This document shows positions 1 to 25,963 of a DNA stretch of 64,000 nt, one piece after another. Every line of letters starts with the position of its first letter. The first letter of the stretch is position 1. The translations under genes and the position numbers were made by a program. Below the pieces are notes generated by a model, which made no database searches, was not told the DNA's origin, and saw only the letters and a program-made list of their open reading frames with translations. The DNA lies in the NCBI GenBank assembly GCA_964016885.1, contig OZ024742.1, positions 44,826,001 through 44,890,000 of the forward strand, in the 5' to 3' direction. The DNA comes from Eledone cirrhosa (lineage: Eukaryota).

Positions 1-3000
1 GTGCTGACAATGTTGATAGTGATGACAATGTTGATAGTGGTGACAATGTTGATAGTGCTGACAATGTTGATAGTGGTGACAAGGTTGATAGTGATGACAA
101 TGTTGATAGTGGTGACAGTGTTGATAGTGGTCACAATGATGATAGTGGTCACAATGATGATAGTGGTGACAATGTTGATAGTGGTGACAATGTTGATAGT
201 GGTGACAATGATAGTGGTGACAATGTTGATAGTGGTGACAATGTTGATATTGGTGACAATGTTGATAGCGGTGACAATGTTGATAATGGTGACAATGTTG
301 ATAGTGGTGACAGTGTTGATAGTGGTGACAATGTTGATAGTGGTGACAGTGTTGATAGTGGTGACAATGTTGATAGTGGTGACAATGTTGATAGTGGTGA
401 CAGTGTTGATAGTGGTGACAAGGTTGATAGTGGTGACAATGTTGATAGTGATGACAATGTTGATAGTGGTGACAATGATGATAGTGGTGACAATGTTGAT
501 AGTGGGGACAATGTTGATGGTGGTGACAATGTTGATAGTGGTGACAATATTGATAGTGGTGACAATGTTGATAGTGGTGACAATGTTGATAGTGGTGACA
601 AGGTTGATAGTGGTGACAATGTTGATAGTGGTGACAATATTGATAGTGGTGACAAGGTTGATAGTGGTGACAATGTTGATAGTGGTGACAATGTTGATAG
701 TGGTGACAATATTGATAGTGGTGACAAGGTTGATAGTGGTGACAGTGTTGATAGTGGTGACAATGTTGATAGTGGTGACAATGATGATAGTGGTGACAAT
801 GTTGATAGTGGTGACAATGTTGATAGTGGTCACAATGATGATAGTGGTCACAATGTTGATAGAGGTGACAATGTTGATAGTGGTGACAATGTTGATAGTG
901 GTGACAATGTTGATAGTGGTCACAATGATGATAGTGGTGACAATGTTGATAGTGGTGACAATGTTGATAGTGGTCACAATGATGATAGTGGTCACAATGT
1001 TGATAGAGGTGACAATGTTGATAGTGGTGACAATGTTGATAATGGTGACAATGTTGATAGTGGTGACAGTGTTGATAGTGGGGACAATGTTGATAGTGGT
1101 CACAATGATGATAGTGGTGACAATGTTGATAGTGGTGACAATGTTGATAGTGGTCACAATGATGATAGTGGTGACAATGTTGATAGTGGTGACAATGTTG
1201 ATAGTGGTGACAAGGTTGATAGTGGTGACAATGTTGATAGTGGTGACAATATTGATAGTGGTGACAAGGTTGATAGTGGTGACAATGTTGATAGTGGTGA
1301 CAATGTTGATAGTGGTGACAATGTTGATAGTGGTCACAATGATGATAGTGGTGACAATGTTGATAGTGGTGACAATGTTGATAGTGGTCACAATGATGAT
1401 AGTGGTGACAATGATGATAGTGGTGACAATGTTGATAGTGGTGACAATGATGATAGTGGTGACAATGATGATAGTGGTGACAATGATGATAGTGATGACA
1501 ATAGTGATAGTGGTGACAATGTTGATAGTGGTGACAATGTTGATAGTGGTGACAATGTTGATAGTGGTGACAAGGTTGATAGTGGTGACAATGTTGATAG
1601 TGGTGACAATGTTGATAGTGGTGACAATGATAGTGGTGACAATGTTGATAATGGTGACAATGCTGATAGTGGTGACAATGTTGATAGTGGTGACAATGTT
1701 GATAGTGGTGACAATGTTGATAGTGGTGACAATGTTGATAGTGGTGACAATGTTAATAGTGGTGAAAATGTTGATAGTGGTGACAATGTTGATAGTGATG
1801 ACAATAGTGATAGTGGTGACAATGTTGATAGTGGTGACAATGTTGATAGTGGTGACAATGTTGATAGTGGTGACAATGTTGATAGTGGTGACAATGATAG
1901 TGGTGACAATGTTGATAGTGGTGACAATGTTGATAGTGGTGACAATGTTGATAGTGGTGACAATGTTGATAGTGGTGACAATGCTGATAGTGGTGACAAT
2001 GTTGATAGTGGTGACAATGTTGATAGTGGTGACAATGTTGATAGCGGTGACAATGTTGATAGTGGTGACAATGATAGTGGTGACAATGTTGATAGTGGTG
2101 ACAATGATAGTGGTGACAATGTTGATAGTGGTGACAATATTGATAGTGGTGACAATGATAGTGGTGACAATGTTGATAGTGGTGACAATGTTGATAGTGG
2201 TGACAATGTTGATAGTGGTGACAAGGTTGATAGTGGTGACAATGTTGATAGTGGTGACAATGTTGATAGTGGTGACAATGATAGTGGTGACAATGTTGAT
2301 AGTGGTGACAATGCTGATAGTGGTGACAAAGTTGATAGTGGTGACAATGTTGATAGTGGTGACAATGTTGATAGTGGTGACAATGATGATAGTGGTGACA
2401 ATGATAGTGGTGACAATGTTGATAGTGGTGACAATATTGATAGTGGTGACAATGATAGTGGTGACAATGTTGATAGTGGTGACAATGTTGATAGTGGTGA
2501 CAATGTTGATAGTGATGACAATGTTGATAGTGGTGACAATGTTGATAGTGGTGACAATGTTGATAGTGGTGACAATGATAGTGGTGACAATGATGATAGT
2601 GGTGACGATGATGATAGTGGTAACAATGATAGTGGTGACAATGATGATAGTGGTGACAATGTTGATAGTGGTGACAATGATAGTTGTGACAATGTTGATA
2701 GTTGTGACAATGTTGATAGTGGTGACAATGTTGATAGTGGTGACAATGTTGATAGTGGTGACAATGATGATAGTGGTGACAATGTTGATAGGGGTGACAA
2801 TGTTGATAGAGGTGACAATGTTGATAGTGGTGACAATGATGATAGTGATGACAATGTTGATAGTGGTGACAATGATGATAGTGGTGACAATGTTGATAGT
2901 GGTGACAATGTTGATAGTGGTGACAATGTTGATAGTGGTGACAATGATGATAGTGGTGACAATTTTGATAGTGGTGACAATGTTGATAGTGGTGACAATG

Positions 3001-6000
3001 ATGATAGTGGTGACAATGATGATAGTGGTGACAATGATGATAGTGGTGACAATGTTGATAGTGGTGACAATGTTGATAGAGGTGACAATGTTGATAATGG
3101 TGACAATGTTGATAGTGGTGACAATGTTGATAGTGGTGACAATGTTGATAGTGGTGACAATGTTGATAGTGGTGACAATGATAGTGGTGACAATGTTGAT
3201 AGTGGTGACAATGTTGATAGTGGTGACAATGATAGCGGTGATAATGTTGATAGTGGTGACAATATTGATAGTGGTGACAATGATGATAGCGGTGACAATG
3301 TTGATAGTGGTGACAATGTTGATAGTGGTGACAATGATGATAGTGGTGACAATGATGATAGTGGTGACAATGATGATAGTGGTGACAATGTTGATAGAGG
3401 TGACAATGTTGATAATGGTGACAATGTTGATAGTGGTGACAATGTTGATAGTGGTGACAATGTTGATAGTGGTGACAATGTTGATAGTGGTGACAATGTT
3501 GATAGTGGTCACAATGATGATAGTGGTGATAATGATGATAGTGGTGACAATGTTGATAGTGGTGACAATGTTGATAGTGATGACAATGTTGATAGTGGTC
3601 ACAATGATGATAGTGGTGACAATGTTGATAGTGATGACAATGTTGATAGTGGTGACAATGTTGATAGTGGTGACAATGTTGATAGTGGTGACAATGATAG
3701 TGGTGACAATGTTGATAGTGGTCACAATGATGATAGTGGTGATAATGATGATAGTGGTGACAATGTTGATAGTGGTGACAATGATGATAGTGGTGACAAT
3801 GATGATAGTGGTGACAATGTTGATAGTGGTGACAATGTTGATAGTGGTGACAATGTTGATAGTGGTGACAATGATGATATTGGTGACAATGTTCATAGTG
3901 GTGACAATGTTCATAGTGGTGACAATGTTGATAGTGGTGACAATGATGATAGTGGTGACAATGTTGATAGTGGTGACAATGTTGATAGTGGTGACAATGT
4001 TGATAGTGGTGACAATGATGATATTGGTGACAATGTTCATAGTGGTGATAATGTTGATAGTGGTGACAATGTTCATAGTGGTGACAATGTTGATAGTGGT
4101 GACAATGTTCATAGTGGTGACAATGTTGATAGTGGTGACAATGTTCATAGTGGTGACAATGATAGTGGTGACAATGTTCATAGTGGTGATAATGTTGATA
4201 GTGGTGACAATGTTCATAGTGGTGACAATGATGATAGTGGTGACAATGTTCATAGTGGTGACAATGTTGATAGTGGTGACAATGTTGATAGTGGTGACAA
4301 TGTTGATAGTGGTGACAATGTTGATAGTGGTGACAATGTTGATAGTGATGACAATGTTGATAGTGGTCACAATGATGATAGTGGTGACAATGTTGATAGT
4401 GATGACAATGTTGATAGTGGTCACAATGATGATAGTGGTGATAATGATGATAGTGGTGACAATGTTGATAGTGGTGACAATGTTGATAGTGGTGACAATG
4501 TTGATAGTGGTGACAATGTTGATAGTGATGACAATGTTGATAGTGGTCACAATGATGATAGTGGTGACAATGTTGATAGTGATGACAATGTTGATAGTGG
4601 TCACAATGATGATAGTGGTGATAATGATGATAGTGGTGACAATGTTGATAGTGGTGACAATGTTGATAGTGATGACAATGTTGATAGTGGTCACAATGAT
4701 GATAGTGGTGACAATGTTGATAGTGATGACAATGTTGATAGTGGTGACAATGTTGATAGTGGTGACAATGTTGATAGTGGTGACAATGATAGTGGTGACA
4801 ATGTTGATAGTGGTCACAATGATGATAGTGGTGATAATGATGATAGTGGTGACAATGTTGATAGTGGTGACAATGATGATAGTGGTGACAATGATGATAG
4901 TGGTGACAATGTTGATAGTGGTGACAATGTTGATAGTGGTGACAATGTTGATAGTGGTGACAATGATGATATTGGTGACAATGTTCATAGTGGTGACAAT
5001 GTTCATAGTGGTGACAATGTTGATAGTGGTGACAATGTTGATAGTGGTGACAATGTTGATAGTGGTGACAATGTTAATAGTGGTGAAAATGTTGATAGTG
5101 GTGACAATGTTGATAGTGATGACAATAGTGATAGTGGTGACAATGTTGATAGTGGTGACAATGTTGATAGTGGTGACAATGTTGATAGTGGTGACAATGT
5201 TGATAGTGGTGACAATGATAGTGGTGACAATGTTGATAGTGGTGACAATGTTGATAGTGGTGACAATGTTGATAGTGGTGACAATGTTGATAGTGGTGAC
5301 AATGCTGATAGTGGTGACAATGTTGATAGTGGTGACAATGTTGATAGTGGTGACAATGTTGATAGCGGTGACAATGTTGATAGTGGTGACAATGATAGTG
5401 GTGACAATGTTGATAGTGGTGACAATGATAGTGGTGACAATGTTGATAGTGGTGACAATATTGATAGTGGTGACAATGATAGTGGTGACAATGTTGATAG
5501 TGGTGACAATGTTGATAGTGGTGACAATGTTGATAGTGGTGACAAGGTTGATAGTGGTGACAATGTTGATAGTGGTGACAATGTTGATAGTGGTGACAAT
5601 GATAGTGGTGACAATGTTGATAGTGGTGACAATGCTGATAGTGGTGACAAAGTTGATAGTGGTGACAATGTTGATAGTGGTGACAATGTTGATAGTGGTG
5701 ACAATGATGATAGTGGTGACAATGATAGTGGTGACAATGTTGATAGTGGTGACAATATTGATAGTGGTGACAATGATAGTGGTGACAATGTTGATAGTGG
5801 TGACAATGTTGATAGTGGTGACAATGTTGATAGTGATGACAATGTTGATAGTGGTGACAATGTTGATAGTGGTGACAATGTTGATAGTGGTGACAATGAT
5901 AGTGGTGACAATGATGATAGTGGTGACGATGATGATAGTGGTAACAATGATAGTGGTGACAATGATGATAGTGGTGACAATGTTGATAGTGGTGACAATG

Positions 6001-9000
6001 ATAGTTGTGACAATGTTGATAGTTGTGACAATGTTGATAGTGGTGACAATGTTGATAGTGGTGACAATGTTGATAGTGGTGACAATGATGATAGTGGTGA
6101 CAATGTTGATAGGGGTGACAATGTTGATAGAGGTGACAATGTTGATAGTGGTGACAATGATGATAGTGATGACAATGTTGATAGTGGTGACAATGATGAT
6201 AGTGGTGACAATGTTGATAGTGGTGACAATGTTGATAGTGGTGACAATGTTGATAGTGGTGACAATGATGATAGTGGTGACAATTTTGATAGTGGTGACA
6301 ATGTTGATAGTGGTGACAATGATGATAGTGGTGACAATGATGATAGTGGTGACAATGATGATAGTGGTGACAATGTTGATAGTGGTGACAATGTTGATAG
6401 AGGTGACAATGTTGATAATGGTGACAATGTTGATAGTGGTGACAATGTTGATAGTGGTGACAATGTTGATAGTGGTGACAATGTTGATAGTGGTGACAAT
6501 GATAGTGGTGACAATGTTGATAGTGGTGACAATGTTGATAGTGGTGACAATGATAGCGGTGATAATGTTGATAGTGGTGACAATATTGATAGTGGTGACA
6601 ATGATGATAGCGGTGACAATGTTGATAGTGGTGACAATGTTGATAGTGGTGACAATGATGATAGTGGTGACAATGATGATAGTGGTGACAATGATGATAG
6701 TGGTGACAATGTTGATAGAGGTGACAATGTTGATAATGGTGACAATGTTGATAGTGGTGACAATGTTGATAGTGGTGACAATGTTGATAGTGGTGACAAT
6801 GTTGATAGTGGTGACAATGTTGATAGTGGTCACAATGATGATAGTGGTGATAATGATGATAGTGGTGACAATGTTGATAGTGGTGACAATGTTGATAGTG
6901 ATGACAATGTTGATAGTGGTCACAATGATGATAGTGGTGACAATGTTGATAGTGATGACAATGTTGATAGTGGTGACAATGTTGATAGTGGTGACAATGT
7001 TGATAGTGGTGACAATGATAGTGGTGACAATGTTGATAGTGGTCACAATGATGATAGTGGTGATAATGATGATAGTGGTGACAATGTTGATAGTGGTGAC
7101 AATGATGATAGTGGTGACAATGATGATAGTGGTGACAATGTTGATAGTGGTGACAATGTTGATAGTGGTGACAATGTTGATAGTGGTGACAATGATGATA
7201 TTGGTGACAATGTTCATAGTGGTGACAATGTTCATAGTGGTGACAATGTTGATAGTGGTGACAATGATGATAGTGGTGACAATGTTGATAGTGGTGACAA
7301 TGTTGATAGTGGTGACAATGTTGATAGTGGTGACAATGATGATATTGGTGACAATGTTCATAGTGGTGATAATGTTGATAGTGGTGACAATGTTCATAGT
7401 GGTGACAATGTTGATAGTGGTGACAATGTTCATAGTGGTGACAATGTTGATAGTGGTGACAATGTTCATAGTGGTGACAATGATAGTGGTGACAATGTTC
7501 ATAGTGGTGATAATGTTGATAGTGGTGACAATGTTCATAGTGGTGACAATGATGATAGTGGTGACAATGTTCATAGTGGTGACAATGTTGATAGTGGTGA
7601 CAATGTTGATAGTGGTGACAATGTTGATAGTGGTGACAATGTTGATAGTGGTGACAATGTTGATAGTGATGACAATGTTGATAGTGGTCACAATGATGAT
7701 AGTGGTGACAATGTTGATAGTGATGACAATGTTGATAGTGGTCACAATGATGATAGTGGTGATAATGATGATAGTGGTGACAATGTTGATAGTGGTGACA
7801 ATGTTGATAGTGGTGACAATGTTGATAGTGGTGACAATGTTGATAGTGATGACAATGTTGATAGTGGTCACAATGATGATAGTGGTGACAATGTTGATAG
7901 TGATGACAATGTTGATAGTGGTCACAATGATGATAGTGGTGATAATGATGATAGTGGTGACAATGTTGATAGTGGTGACAATGTTGATAGTGATGACAAT
8001 GTTGATAGTGGTCACAATGATGATAGTGGTGACAATGTTGATAGTGATGACAATGTTGATAGTGGTGACAATGTTGATAGTGGTGACAATGTTGATAGTG
8101 GTGACAATGATAGTGGTGACAATGTTGATAGTGGTCACAATGATGATAGTGGTGATAATGATGATAGTGGTGACAATGTTGATAGTGGTGACAATGATGA
8201 TAGTGGTGACAATGATGATAGTGGTGACAATGTTGATAGTGGTGACAATGTTGATAGTGGTGACAATGTTGATAGTGGTGACAATGATGATATTGGTGAC
8301 AATGTTCATAGTGGTGACAATGTTCATAGTGGTGACAATGTTGATAGTGGTGACAATGATGATAGTGGTGACAATGTTGATAGTGGTGACAATGTTGATA
8401 GTGGTGACAATGTTGATAGTGGTGACAATGATGATATTGGTGACAATGTTCATAGTGGTGATAATGTTGATAGTGGTGACAATGTTCATAGTGGTGACAA
8501 TGTTGATAGTGGTGACAATGTTGATAGTGGTGACAATGTTCATAGTGGTGACAATGATAGTGGTGACAATGTTCATAGTGGTGATAATGTTGATAGTGGT
8601 GACAATGTTCATAGTGGTGACAATGATGATAGTGGTGACAATGTTCATAGTGGTGACAATGTTGATAGTGGTGACAATGTTGATAGTGGTGACAATGTTG
8701 ATAGTGGTGACAATGTTGATAGTGGTGACAATGTTGATAGTGGTGACAATGATAGTGGTGATAATGTTGATAGTGGTGACAATGATAGTGGTGATAATGT
8801 TGATAGTGGTGACAATATTGATAGTGGTGACAATGATGATAGCGGTGACAATGTTGATAGTGGTGACAATGTTGATAGTGGTGACAATGATGATAGTGGT
8901 GACAATGATGATAGTGGTGACAATGATGATAGTGGTGACAATGTTGATAGAGGTGACAATGTTGATAATGGTGACAATGTTGATAGTGGTGACAATGTTG

Positions 9001-10690
9001 ATAGTGGTGACAATGTTGATAGTGGTGACAATGATGATAGTGGTGACAATGTTGATAGTGGTGACAATGTTGATAGTGGTGACAATGTTGATAGTGGTCA
9101 CAATGATGATAGTGGTGATAATGATGATAGTGGTGACAATGTTGATAGTGGTGACAATGTTGATAGTGATGACAATGTTGATAGTGGTCACAATGATGAT
9201 AGTGGTGACAATGTTGATAGTGATGACAATGTTGATAGTGGTGACAATGTTGATAGTGGTGACAATGTTGATAGTGGTGACAATGTTGATAGTGGTCACA
9301 ATGATGATAGTGGTGATAATGATGATAGTGGTGACAATGTTGATAGTGGTGACAATGATGATAGTGGTGACAATGTTGATAGTGGTGACAATGTTGATAG
9401 TGGTGACAATGTTGATAGTGGTGACAATGTTGATAGTGGTTACAATGATAGTGGTGACAATGTTGATAGTGGTGACAATGATAGTGGTGACAATGTTGAT
9501 AGTGGTGACAATGTTGATAGTGGTGACAATGTTGATAGTGGTGACAATGATGATAGTGGTGACAATGATGATAGTGGTGACAATGTTGATAGTGGTGACA
9601 ATGATGATATTGGTGACAATGTTCATAGTGGTGACAATGTTCATAGTGGTGACAATGTTGATAGTGGTGACAATGATGATAGTGGTGACAATGTTGATAG
9701 TGGTGACAATGTTCATAGTGGTGACAATGATAGTGGTGACAATGTTCATAGTGGTGATAATGTTGATAGTGGTGACAATGTTCATAGTGGTGACAATGAT
9801 GATAGTGGTGACAATGTTCATAGTGGTGACAATGTTGATAGTGGTGACAATGTTCATAGTGGTGACAATGATGATAGTGGTGACAATGATAGTGGTGACA
9901 ATGTTGATAGTGGTGACAATGTTGATAGTGGTGACAATGATAGTGGTGACAATGTTGATAGTGGTGACACTGTTGATAGTGGTGACAATGTTGATAGCGG
10001 TGACAATGTTGATAGTGGTGACAATGTTGATAGCGGTGACAATGTTGATAGCGGTGACAATGTTGATAGTGGTGACAATGTTGATAGTGGTGACAATGTT
10101 GATAGCGGTGACAATGTTGATAGTGGTGACAATGTTGATAGCGGTGACAATGTTGATAGCGGTGACAATGTTGATAGTGGTGACAATGTTGATAGTGGTG
10201 ACAATGTTGATAGTGGTGACAATGTTGATAGTGATGACAATGATAGTGGTGACAATGTTGATAGTGATGACAATAGTGATAGTGGTGACAATGTTGATAG
10301 CGGTGACAATGTTGATAGTGATGACAATGATAGTGATGACAATAGTGATAGTGGTGACAATGTTGATAGTGGTGACAATGATAGTGGTGACAATGTTGAT
10401 AGTGATGACAATAGTGATAGTGGTGACAATGTTGATAGTGGTGACAATGTTGATAGTGATGACAATGATAGTGGTGACAATGTTGATAGTGATGACAATA
10501 GTGATAGTGGTGACAATGTTGATAGCGGTGACAATGTTGATAGTGATGACAATGATAGTGATGACAATAGTGATAGTGGTGACAATGTTGATAGTGGTGA
10601 CAATGATAGTGGTGACAATGTTGATAGTGATGACAATAGTGATAGTGGTGACAATGTTGATAGTGATGACAATGATAGTGGTGACAATGA
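1..10690. repeat. 18-bp minisatellite (GTGACAATGTTGATAGTG)n with 15-bp deletion variants, about 600 units, continuing beyond the window start
   Basis: Tandem unit is directly visible. Variants include ATG/TTG swaps, GTC, GCG, TTC and 3-bp deletions. Rare variants recur at +3321 bp (TGTTAATAGTGGTGAAAAT at 1751 and 5072; GGTGACGATG at 2601 and 5922). Confidence 0.97.
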
Positions 10691-11005
10691 TGAGGATGAT
10701 AAACATGAATTAATGATTACAAGGGTGGGATGATGATAGTAAGGATGAAACTGATGATGATGATGATGATGATTATTATGATGAGAATGACTGTTATGAA
10801 ATCACTGTCGATGGTGGTGTGTCGGTGCTAGTAATAGTAGTGTGCATAGTGGTGGTGCGGAAGTAGAAATACTGGTGTTGTTGTTGGTGTTGGAGATGCT
10901 GTTATTGATTTTGTAGATGGTGGTGATGGTGGTAGTGATAATGTGTAGGTGGTGTTGGTGGTAGCAGTGCTGTAGGGCTGGCAGTGCTGGTAATAGTGGT
11001 GCTGC
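10691..11005. repeat. Degenerate GAT/GGT/GTA trinucleotide low-complexity flank of the minisatellite
   Basis: (GAT)n at about 10753-10772 and GGT/GTA-rich runs grading into unique sequence. Confidence 0.8.
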
Positions 11006-24228: not shown

Positions 24229-24320
24229 TATAAACGTTTGGAGTTGGAAGGCCAAGACAATGCAAGTATGGATATATCCATACCTGCATTGTCTTGGCCT
24301 TCTAACTCCAAACGTTTATA
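24229..24320. repeat. 92-bp near-perfect palindrome (46-bp arms, no spacer, 2 mismatches)
   Basis: TATAAACGTTTGGAGTTGGAAGGCCAAGACAATGCAAGTATGGATA | TATCCATACCTGCATTGTCTTGGCCTTCTAACTCCAAACGTTTATA. Confidence 0.95.
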
Positions 24321-24549: not shown

Positions 24550-24822
24550 CAGTCCAAAACAAATGAGGTCGTGTAGGTGTCACGACAAAAAAACACACAG
24601 TCCACGCTGTAATGTGGCCGTGTAGGTAACACAGTAAAAACCTCCCAGTCCACACTGTAAACGTGGTTGGTGTTAGGAAGGGCATCCAGCCGTAGAAAAC
24701 CCGCCAGACAGTCTTATGTGAGCAAGACAACCACTCTTGCCTCAAGTGGGAAAACTCCCGTCCAAACCCATGCAAGTGTGGAAGAGGGACGTTAAACGAT
24801 GATGATGATGATGATGATGATA
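24550..24822 (+). mobile_element. SINE 3' portion related to family A, preceded by short internal tandem duplications
   Basis: GGTTGGTGTTAGGAAGGGCATCCAGCCGTAGAAA...CCCATGCAAGTGTGGAAGAGGGACGTTAAACGATGATGATG. CAGTCCA occurs three times at roughly 48-bp spacing, with GTGTAGGT between. Confidence 0.75.
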
Positions 24823-25126
24823 TATTATATATATCTTTTATACTTGAATTATTATGGCTCTGGACAAAGTCTATTGAGTTGGTTTATTGAGAAGCACAAA
24901 AATCAAACATATTTGATATGGTTTGATACCTGACATTTGTGTATATATGTATATATATATATATATTAGAATTGGTGCTCTGAAATAGTGATATATATAT
25001 GAATGTATATATAGTGTATTTTGCAATACACTGTATGCTTAATTAAAAGCATTTTGAAGACCTTACGCTATTGTTTTAAAGTAGTGACTATGTCACTTAC
25101 TTCTTTTTTCAACAAACAAAGGGAGA

Positions 25127-25174
25127 TAAACTGCCAGATCTCTGTTTCGTACTGTTGGTACTCTTCAGAGCTTA
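25127..25174 (-). ncRNA. Minimal type I hammerhead ribozyme motif (cleavage triplet mutated to GGC)
   Basis: Minus strand: TAAGCT CTGAAGA GTAC caaca GTAC GAAA CAGA ga TCTG GC AGTTTA. Confidence 0.75.
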
Positions 25175-25444
25175 CCACTCCCTCTGTCGGCTGAAAATTA
25201 TGAATGTTGGATTCTTATAGAATTCCAGTAATAATCAGGAACTGATTATACAGAGCGGTTGCCGGTCCACCAAAAATTGAAAATTAGAATTGGTGCTCTG
25301 AAATAGCGATATATATATGAATGTATATATAGTGTATTTTGCAATACACTGTATGCTTAATTAAAAGCATTTTGAAGACCTTATGCTATTGTTTTAAAGT
25401 AGTGACTATGTCATTTACATCTTTTTTCAGCAAACAAAGAGAGA

Positions 25445-25492
25445 TAAGCTGACAGATCTCTGTTTCATACTGTTGGTAGTCTTCAGAGCTTA
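25445..25492 (-). ncRNA. Minimal type I hammerhead ribozyme motif (GUC intact, stem II first pair mutated)
   Basis: Minus strand: TAAGCT CTGAAGA CTAC caaca GTAT GAAA CAGA ga TCTG TC AGCTTA. Stem I TAAGCT/AGCTTA pairs perfectly. Confidence 0.78.
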
Positions 25493-25623
25493 GCACTCCC
25501 ATTTCAAAATACACTATATATACATTCATATATATATATACCCTTGAAATATATATAATAGAATGAATATGGTTTTATAAATATAGTTTCCATTTATTTA
25601 ATATCATTGATATATATATATAT

Positions 25624-25963
25624 GGAGGCACATGGCTTAGTGGTTAGAGGATTGGCCTTGCAATCGAAAGGTTGTGAGTTCAATTCTCAGACCGGCTGAT
25701 GTGTTGTTTCCTTGAGCAAGACACTTTATTTCACATTGCTCCAGTTTACTCAGCTGTAGAAATGAGATGATAGGGGCTGGGGTCCCTATCATTCCACTGC
25801 AAAGTGGTCGTGGAGGTGCCACGGCAAAAAAGCACCCAGCACTCACTGTAAATGAGGTTGGTGTTAGGAAGGGCATCCAGCTGTAGAAATCAAGCCAGAA
25901 TCAGTTCCCGTCCCACCCTTGCAAGCAGGGAAAAAGCGGACGTAAAATGAAATGATGATGATG
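25624..25963 (+). mobile_element. SINE family A, full length
   Basis: GGAGGCACATGGCTTAGTGGTTAGAG (A box)...GAGTTCAATTCTC (B box)...GGACGTAAAATGAAATGATGATGATG; inserted in a (TA)n context. Confidence 0.93.

Follow-up and report, generated by a model that had tools for sequence, protein, structure and literature searches.

The locus and its surroundings

The window, by which we mean the whole 64,000-nucleotide stretch of Eledone cirrhosa DNA that was analysed, contains a direct repeat with a period of 318 bp. Positions 24965-25182 and 25283-25500 are identical at 207 of 218 sites, and each copy carries a hammerhead motif on the minus strand, as the original prediction, made from the letters of the window, had stated. 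When both strands of the 64 kb were scanned for CTGANGA...GAAA there were four matches, two of which (25486 and 25168, both on the minus strand) have hammerhead flanks. Table 1 lists the features. Unit coordinates, written q, are 25283 minus the window position, so that they follow the minus strand of the unit from 25282 to 24965; PLE stands for Penelope-like element.

Table 1. Features of the locus, with the autonomous element discussed as its possible partner
Feature	Position	Strand	Remarks
Main arm	24965..25500	-	1.69 head-to-tail units; 5'-truncated at q101; 3' end is the 'long' end, q318
Copy A, complete 318-bp unit	24965..25282	-	
Copy B, partial unit, q101-318	25283..25500	-	
Type I hammerhead A	25120..25180	-	Core 25168-25162 and 25148-25145; triplet mutated to GGC (25135-25133)
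Type I hammerhead B	25438..25498	-	Core and GUC (25453-25451) intact; C-U mismatch opens stem II at its first pair
Monomer RNA from cleavage site to cleavage site, predicted	25133..25450	-	318 nt, 34% GC, strongly self-paired
26-nt PLE-type 'tail', q293-318	24965..24990, again at 25283-25308	-	Separates the two alternative 3' ends
Inverted second arm, q256-292	25501..25537	+	3' end is the 'short' end, q292
(TA)n target microsatellite, left side	24938..24964	.	
3' piece of another repeat family	25541-25609	+	Lies in the same (TA)n; 98% identity with L131:6877-6961
L121, apparently intact PLE	G000:C1:145869300-145877300		Pseudo-LTRs 97.8% identical

The two copies carry different lesions, as had been claimed. 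Copy A has GGC in place of GUC (the change, by which U16.1 is lost, is at 25134) and its hammerhead is predicted to be inactive, while in copy B the first pair of stem II (25479/25467) is a C-U mismatch, which is predicted to impair an otherwise intact motif. With both copies lesioned, the locus does not have the two consecutive intact hammerheads by which an active element is recognized by Li et al. (2026), and it is a decayed copy of its family, in keeping with the decay that the original prediction had proposed. Tandem pairs that fit the intact-core pattern occur at other loci, for example at C1:22610366/22610685. Cuts after 25451 and 25133 would free 318 nt, and for this predicted monomer the minimum free energy as a circle is -77.8 kcal/mol, with a z-score of -6.07 against shuffles (calculated on a stretch offset by one base).

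Further claims about the structure held. The array terminates on (TA)n, at 24964, the insertion as a whole is flanked by (TA)n, and there is no ORF at the locus, the longest stop-free frame being 59 codons, or 47 when counted from an ATG. The inverted fragment is present, but it had been given as 36 bp at 25505-25540, while it is 37 bp long, 97% complementary and placed as in Table 1.

Several other repeats lie in the window. The family to which 25541-25609 belongs was seen in about ten other loci, and other copies of it have a hammerhead-like motif upstream. At 24229-24320 there is an inverted repeat with 46-nt arms. Its weak Rfam hairpin matches notwithstanding, it is probably not a miRNA but a PLE insertion of two very short arms, since its sequence matches the L131/L063 PLE family at the 3' end. 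SINE-like repeats at 25624-25960 and 24560-24820 have a 73-nt segment in common, and the first of them opens with a weak tRNA match (19.9 bits). Most of the window (1-10693 and 27039-64000) consists of two satellites, one with a period of 18 bp (602 copies) and one with a period of 57 bp (648 copies).

A dispersed family with a covarying hammerhead

The unit belongs to a dispersed multi-copy family with about 3,000 motif-matching copies, as the genome-wide check of copy number revealed. A search of the species' own genome gave 3,327 candidates, 40 of which were scored. A 23-nt motif from the tail has 2,922 exact matches genome-wide and the family hammerhead pattern has 3,195, the reversed-pattern control giving 0 in both cases; these are counts of motifs, not of loci, and they miss diverged copies. 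We examined 210 loci, namely the 30 best-matching ones and 180 on contig C1 taken from the motif lists. Sixty of these 180 were chosen by the tail motif and 120 almost all by the hammerhead motif.

The 60 loci sampled by tail motif, and hence independently of the ribozyme, provided 98 copies. The core is intact in 69 of them, with N7 variable. Three of the four pairs of stem II switch Watson-Crick type: the first is G-C in 68 copies and A-U in 16, the second C-G in 46 and U-A in 42, and the fourth C-G in 65 and U-A in 22. Pairs of stem III behave similarly (G-C 76 and A-U 11 at one pair, A-U 66 and G-C 16 at another). For the pair between positions 3 and 8 of the core we used the 3,195 genome-wide matches, in which these two positions had been left free. 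There are 986 C3-G8 cores, 2,127 U3-A8 cores and 82 mixed ones, against about 1,394 mixed cores expected under independence, so that the pair is C-G or U-A in 3,113 of the 3,195. U3-A8 has been described as a natural covariation of hammerheads (PMC4209133). In a hand-picked set of 54, about half of which came through a stem II filter and which is therefore biased, 95% of cells were paired compared to 89.4% in shuffles. Because the changes at the 3-8 pair, in stem II and in stem III are compensatory, we take the hammerhead to be under selection. The counts should be read as a few subfamily-founding changes, each of which founded an amplified subfamily, and not as thousands of independent events. 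Conservation of the core together with covariation of the stems among genomic copies was what the original prediction had named as its own test, and this is what the copies display.

The motif is of type I, with a CUGANGA...GAAA...NUH core that includes the 3-8 pair, covarying stems and an open stem I. The label of a minimal hammerhead, which had been given to it, is wrong. In the minimal hammerhead of PLEs helix III is absent or minimal, helix II is long and helix I is short (PMC4209133); in the family hammerhead stem II has 4 bp, stem I continues beyond an internal loop and stem III has 3-4 bp, and the motif does not belong to that class. Rfam models called no hammerhead in the window, the best being Hammerhead_HH9 at 14.4 bits (E 1.2, gathering threshold 52), and Rfam hammerhead models did not match the intact copy L007 either. 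This limits the Rfam family label that can be attached to the motif, not the motif class.

Nor is AGATCT, which the original prediction had pointed out, the palindrome that matters. The one relevant to dimers is centred on stem III (CAGAGA/UCUG). At the window locus this stem has two central G-A mismatches, and it is a perfect palindrome in 64 of the 98 copies. For three copies, the calculated energy of the stem III duplex is -12 to -20 kcal/mol compared to -0.1 to -1.9 kcal/mol for the hairpin. A duplex so much stronger than the hairpin at a near-palindromic stem suggests that cleavage would proceed through dimers, which has been described for canonical type I motifs of animals (PMC4209133). 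Local minimum-energy folds formed the three-way junction in only one of the five copies tried, so that the activity of the monomer is uncertain.

Insertion anatomy and the template

In the 180 loci on C1, 280 of 340 arms end either at q318 (146 arms) or at q292 (134 arms). There are thus two fixed 3' ends 26 nt apart, while the 5' ends are scattered. TA-rich sequence follows 229 of the 280 fixed-end arms. An inverted arm, joined 5'-to-5' to the first, is present in 116 of the 180 loci, and among the inverted pairs that could be classed 79 of 87 combine a long with a short end (p 4e-16; a further 38 inverted pairs had an end of neither class). The copy in the window obeys this rule. PLE insertions are described as partial tandems that carry a truncated copy in inverted orientation, have a tail at one of their ends and favour (TA)n (bioRxiv 10.1101/2021.04.23.441226), and the same set of features is found here: partial tandems, a 5'-truncated inverted arm, a tail at one end and a microsatellite target. 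The Penelope insertion signature that had been read from one inverted fragment is therefore a property of the family, and there is clear genomic evidence, of an anatomical kind, that the family inserts in the manner of PLEs.

The arms also tell something about the template. Among arms at the tail-sampled loci, a sample biased toward tail-bearing arms, 68 of 97 extend upstream past the cleavage site. Stops do not pile up there in this sample (4 at q146-155, compared to 1 and 5 in the adjacent bins). The unit junction is crossed by 38 of these 97 arms, and the q318-q1 junction by 96 of the 280 fixed-end arms overall. Such read-through means that the template was not a cleaved linear monomer; it could have been a circle or an uncleaved multimer, either of which explains the read-through equally well.

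If the template is a linear multimer transcribed from long source arrays, the hammerhead does no more than trim it and no circle is formed, although the element would still be mobilised by a PLE. Long arrays do exist (18 units at L085, 15 at L184 and 7 at L028), and all three are possible source loci. At L184 and L085 the units have more variants in common than expected from independent decay (58 versus 44.5 at L184, 75 versus 55.6 at L085), so that these arrays are not cleanly star-like, which indicates some local duplication, but most variants are private, which counts against the multimer. A few tandem pairs mix subfamilies (concordance 0.57 at L017). Mostly, however, the units of one locus are of one subfamily: 36 of 42 tandem pairs and 44 of 45 inverted pairs agree, compared to 19% of 10,856 random pairs between loci (two duplicated loci were left out). 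By this measure each insertion event has one source, whose subfamily the arms of the locus appear to have in common. Identity is of no help in this matter, since its median within loci (94-95%) is not above that of the best outside match (96%), and it cannot serve as an argument for a single template. At a single locus, L063, four copies of a 163-bp derivative of the unit that lacks the hammerhead make up an array whose 3' end is a proper one. Tandem insertion is hence possible without the ribozyme, a point in favour of the multimer, and the array fits repeated copying of one odd circle as well as local duplication. On the other side, a ribozyme that is under selection and cleaves efficiently would destroy multimers, and in related retrozymes of molluscs circles are the main form to accumulate (PMC7229834). 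Taking these points together, we regard a multimeric template as unlikely, and circularisation of the monomer by a host ligase as somewhat the better bet when judged on its own.

A second alternative is that the unit is the pseudo-LTR of an autonomous PLE and that its copies are the 5'-truncated ends of that element. The hammerhead, the tail, the inverted arms and the (TA)n target are all PLE features, and the genome is rich in PLEs, with 10,595 GIY-YIG candidates of which 49 places (50 stretches) were inspected. In this sample, which is small and biased to families best scored by the Pfam model, no pseudo-LTR homologous to the unit was found. Upstream, the unit is preceded by a further unit, by an inverted arm or by unrelated flanking sequence, with no shared 3'UTR or ORF in any of the 210 unit-bearing loci; in none of them is the unit the terminal repeat of an ORF-bearing element, nor does it have the RT and GIY-YIG ORF between pseudo-LTRs that makes a PLE autonomous. 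The frequent crossing of the q318-q1 junction (the 96 arms of 280) also speaks against truncated ends. We consider this alternative very improbable. The original prediction had named it as an outcome that would refute the retrozyme, so that this check, too, came out in its favour. The claim of a non-autonomous hammerhead element with a unit of 318 nt from cleavage site to cleavage site is supported by the covarying core, by the PLE end signature and by the lack of an ORF bounded by units.

A few associations were looked into and rejected. The unit beside a PLE at L092, taken as a candidate pseudo-LTR, is a separate unit insertion; PLE fragments that adjoin the unit at L083, L090 and L052 were discounted as neighbours in a shared target; and a candidate junction to an autonomous partner, which came from a contig lead, is single-copy sequence.

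Spread at the DNA level as a satellite or minisatellite, by unequal crossover or extrachromosomal circles and with a relic hammerhead, would account for the tandem layout and for the variants shared within arrays, and local amplification of this kind is discussed in bioRxiv 10.64898/2026.07.22.740005, but it is largely refuted by the end geometry (dispersed copies, two fixed 3' ends with variable 5' ends, inverted arms, (TA)n targeting), conflicts with the compensatory changes in the catalytic core and is scarcely credible.

A possible partner, a proposed mechanism and known systems

Our preferred reading, to which we give a probability of roughly 85%, sees in the locus the decayed insertion of a non-LTR retrozyme, a non-coding 318-bp hammerhead element of several thousand copies, for which an autonomous PLE most likely supplies the reverse transcriptase and the GIY-YIG endonuclease that copy it into (TA)n. 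Transcripts of tandem copies would cleave themselves after GUC, a reaction to which dimers paired at the stem III palindrome are probably best suited, and free the 318-nt monomer, which a host ligase would probably close into a circle. Judging from the geometry of the ends, the PLE protein would nick (TA)n on both strands, and from each 3'-OH reverse transcription would start at q318 or at q292, two fixed AU-rich sites inside the RNA. Synthesis would pass the cleavage site and the unit junction and stop variably, and the two cDNAs, joined 5'-to-5', would make a tandem arm and an inverted arm, of which only one bears the tail; these last steps have their outcome visible in the insertions. The element is then most likely a parasite that borrows the copying machinery of PLEs, possibly by way of a small circular RNA.

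Which PLE might this be? L121 has an ORF of 938 aa with RT and GIY-YIG domains, pseudo-LTRs of 1,071 bp, a CX4CxxC linker that resembles the Neptune/Nematis motif, and a minimal U3-A8 hammerhead about 145 nt before the end of the element. Its family also has two 3' ends, 68 nt apart; six inverted pairs have one of each, and in one pair both are short. The last seven letters, TTCTAAT, are common to its long end and q318. Beyond these letters nhmmer found no similarity between the unit and the L121 pseudo-LTR, the score of the two tails was reached by 707 of 1,000 shuffles, and the tail of the unit is no more similar to five PLE ends than shuffles are.

At two loci, L156 and L184, a short-end retrozyme arm is joined 5'-to-5' to a long-end arm of the L121 family, between two (TA)n runs. 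The joint at L184 holds a 41-nt PLE piece in the same sense, as a template switch would leave, and within each pair the two arms have diverged to a similar extent from their closest relatives. Two such chimeras among 52 non-TA free ends give p 0.11, or 0.03 when orientation is included, under a model of chance adjacency through target deletion; these values are nominal, with no correction for the 11 entries of the library. Free ends at L063 and L230 adjoin two other PLE families. The chimeras are suggestive of L121 as the partner, and its family, of Neptune/Nematis type, is the leading candidate for the mobiliser, at odds that we would place slightly below even.

A more detailed version can be offered tentatively, and we would not bet on it. 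PLE integration would use two primers, both nicked (TA)n strands priming at two fixed internal sites of a circular RNA made by the ribozyme, and the two arms could be copied from two RNAs. If the retrozyme rides the L121 family in this way, the L156 and L184 chimeras would be fossils of single events, which would name the mobiliser and expose how the tandem, inverted and tail structures of PLEs form.

Two observations lie beside this question. At L063:1959-4165 a 1.57-kb arm of the L131 PLE family is joined 5'-to-5' to the four 163-bp copies, both ends being long. At least ten other families of hammerhead-like motifs occur in the sampled flanks, several of them downstream of PLE ORFs.

As an animal non-LTR retrozyme the family belongs to a known class, and the element alone is unsurprising. 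Which autonomous element mobilises animal retrozymes is an open question in the portion of PMC7761336 available to us, according to which retrozyme repeats show no motif that would tell their mobiliser. How PLEs come to form tandem, inverted and tailed insertions is likewise left open in the available part of 10.1101/2021.04.23.441226. Here a substrate of 318 nt without an ORF reproduces the whole end geometry of PLEs thousands of times, and an intact candidate enzyme of 938 aa and natural chimeras are found in the same genome. The family thus offers a small and concrete system for PLE priming, for the role of the hammerhead and for the circle model, and, having cores of both the C3-G8 and the U3-A8 type, it also provides a natural series of hammerhead variants. 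The literature searched, a limited library, contained no prior description of this family or of a cephalopod retrozyme, and no analysis of insertion ends or chimeras of retrozymes.

Animal non-LTR retrozymes have repeats of 350-390 bp in Mytilus, 220-240 bp in Acropora and 330/350 bp in axolotl (Cervera and de la Pena 2020, PMC7229834). The features by which they are known at the level of sequence are all present here: a tandem unit of about 150-450 bp (318), a type I hammerhead in each unit, GC below 45% (34%), dispersed copies, no coding capacity and no LTR. Like the retrozymes of PMC7229834, the family has a short tandem unit with a canonical type I hammerhead, low GC, no ORF or LTR, thousands of copies, a self-paired predicted monomer and PLEs in the same genome. 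It differs from them in its family-specific sequence and in the U3-A8 core of its majority; the PLE tail rule, the (TA)n targeting and the chimeras with PLE arms are not described for retrozymes in the portion of PMC7229834 available to us. Circles have been shown for the retrozymes of that study, and for this family a circle is proposed.

That PLEs mobilise retrozymes and that the template is circular has already been proposed (PMC7229834, PMC4209133). Li, Clavereau and Pollet (2026; bioRxiv 10.64898/2026.07.22.740005) likewise conclude that retrozymes depend on PLEs. Their basis is co-occurrence and pseudo-LTR homology in Xenopus, while ours is the anatomy of insertions and the chimeras; unlike their case, the 50 stretches inspected here contain no homologous pseudo-LTR.

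With EN+ PLEs of the Neptune/Nematis type (Craig et al. 2021, 10.1101/2021.04.23.441226; Cervera and de la Pena 2014, PMC4209133) and with L121, the family has in common partial tandems, an inverted 5'-truncated arm, a tail at one end and the (TA)n target. It is also like them in the position of the hammerhead, 145-170 nt before the 3' end, and like L121 in its last seven letters. Unlike these elements it has no ORF, is 318 bp rather than about 5 kb long and carries a canonical, not a minimal, hammerhead; and it differs from L121 in a tail of 26 nt instead of 68 nt and in the absence of wider sequence similarity.
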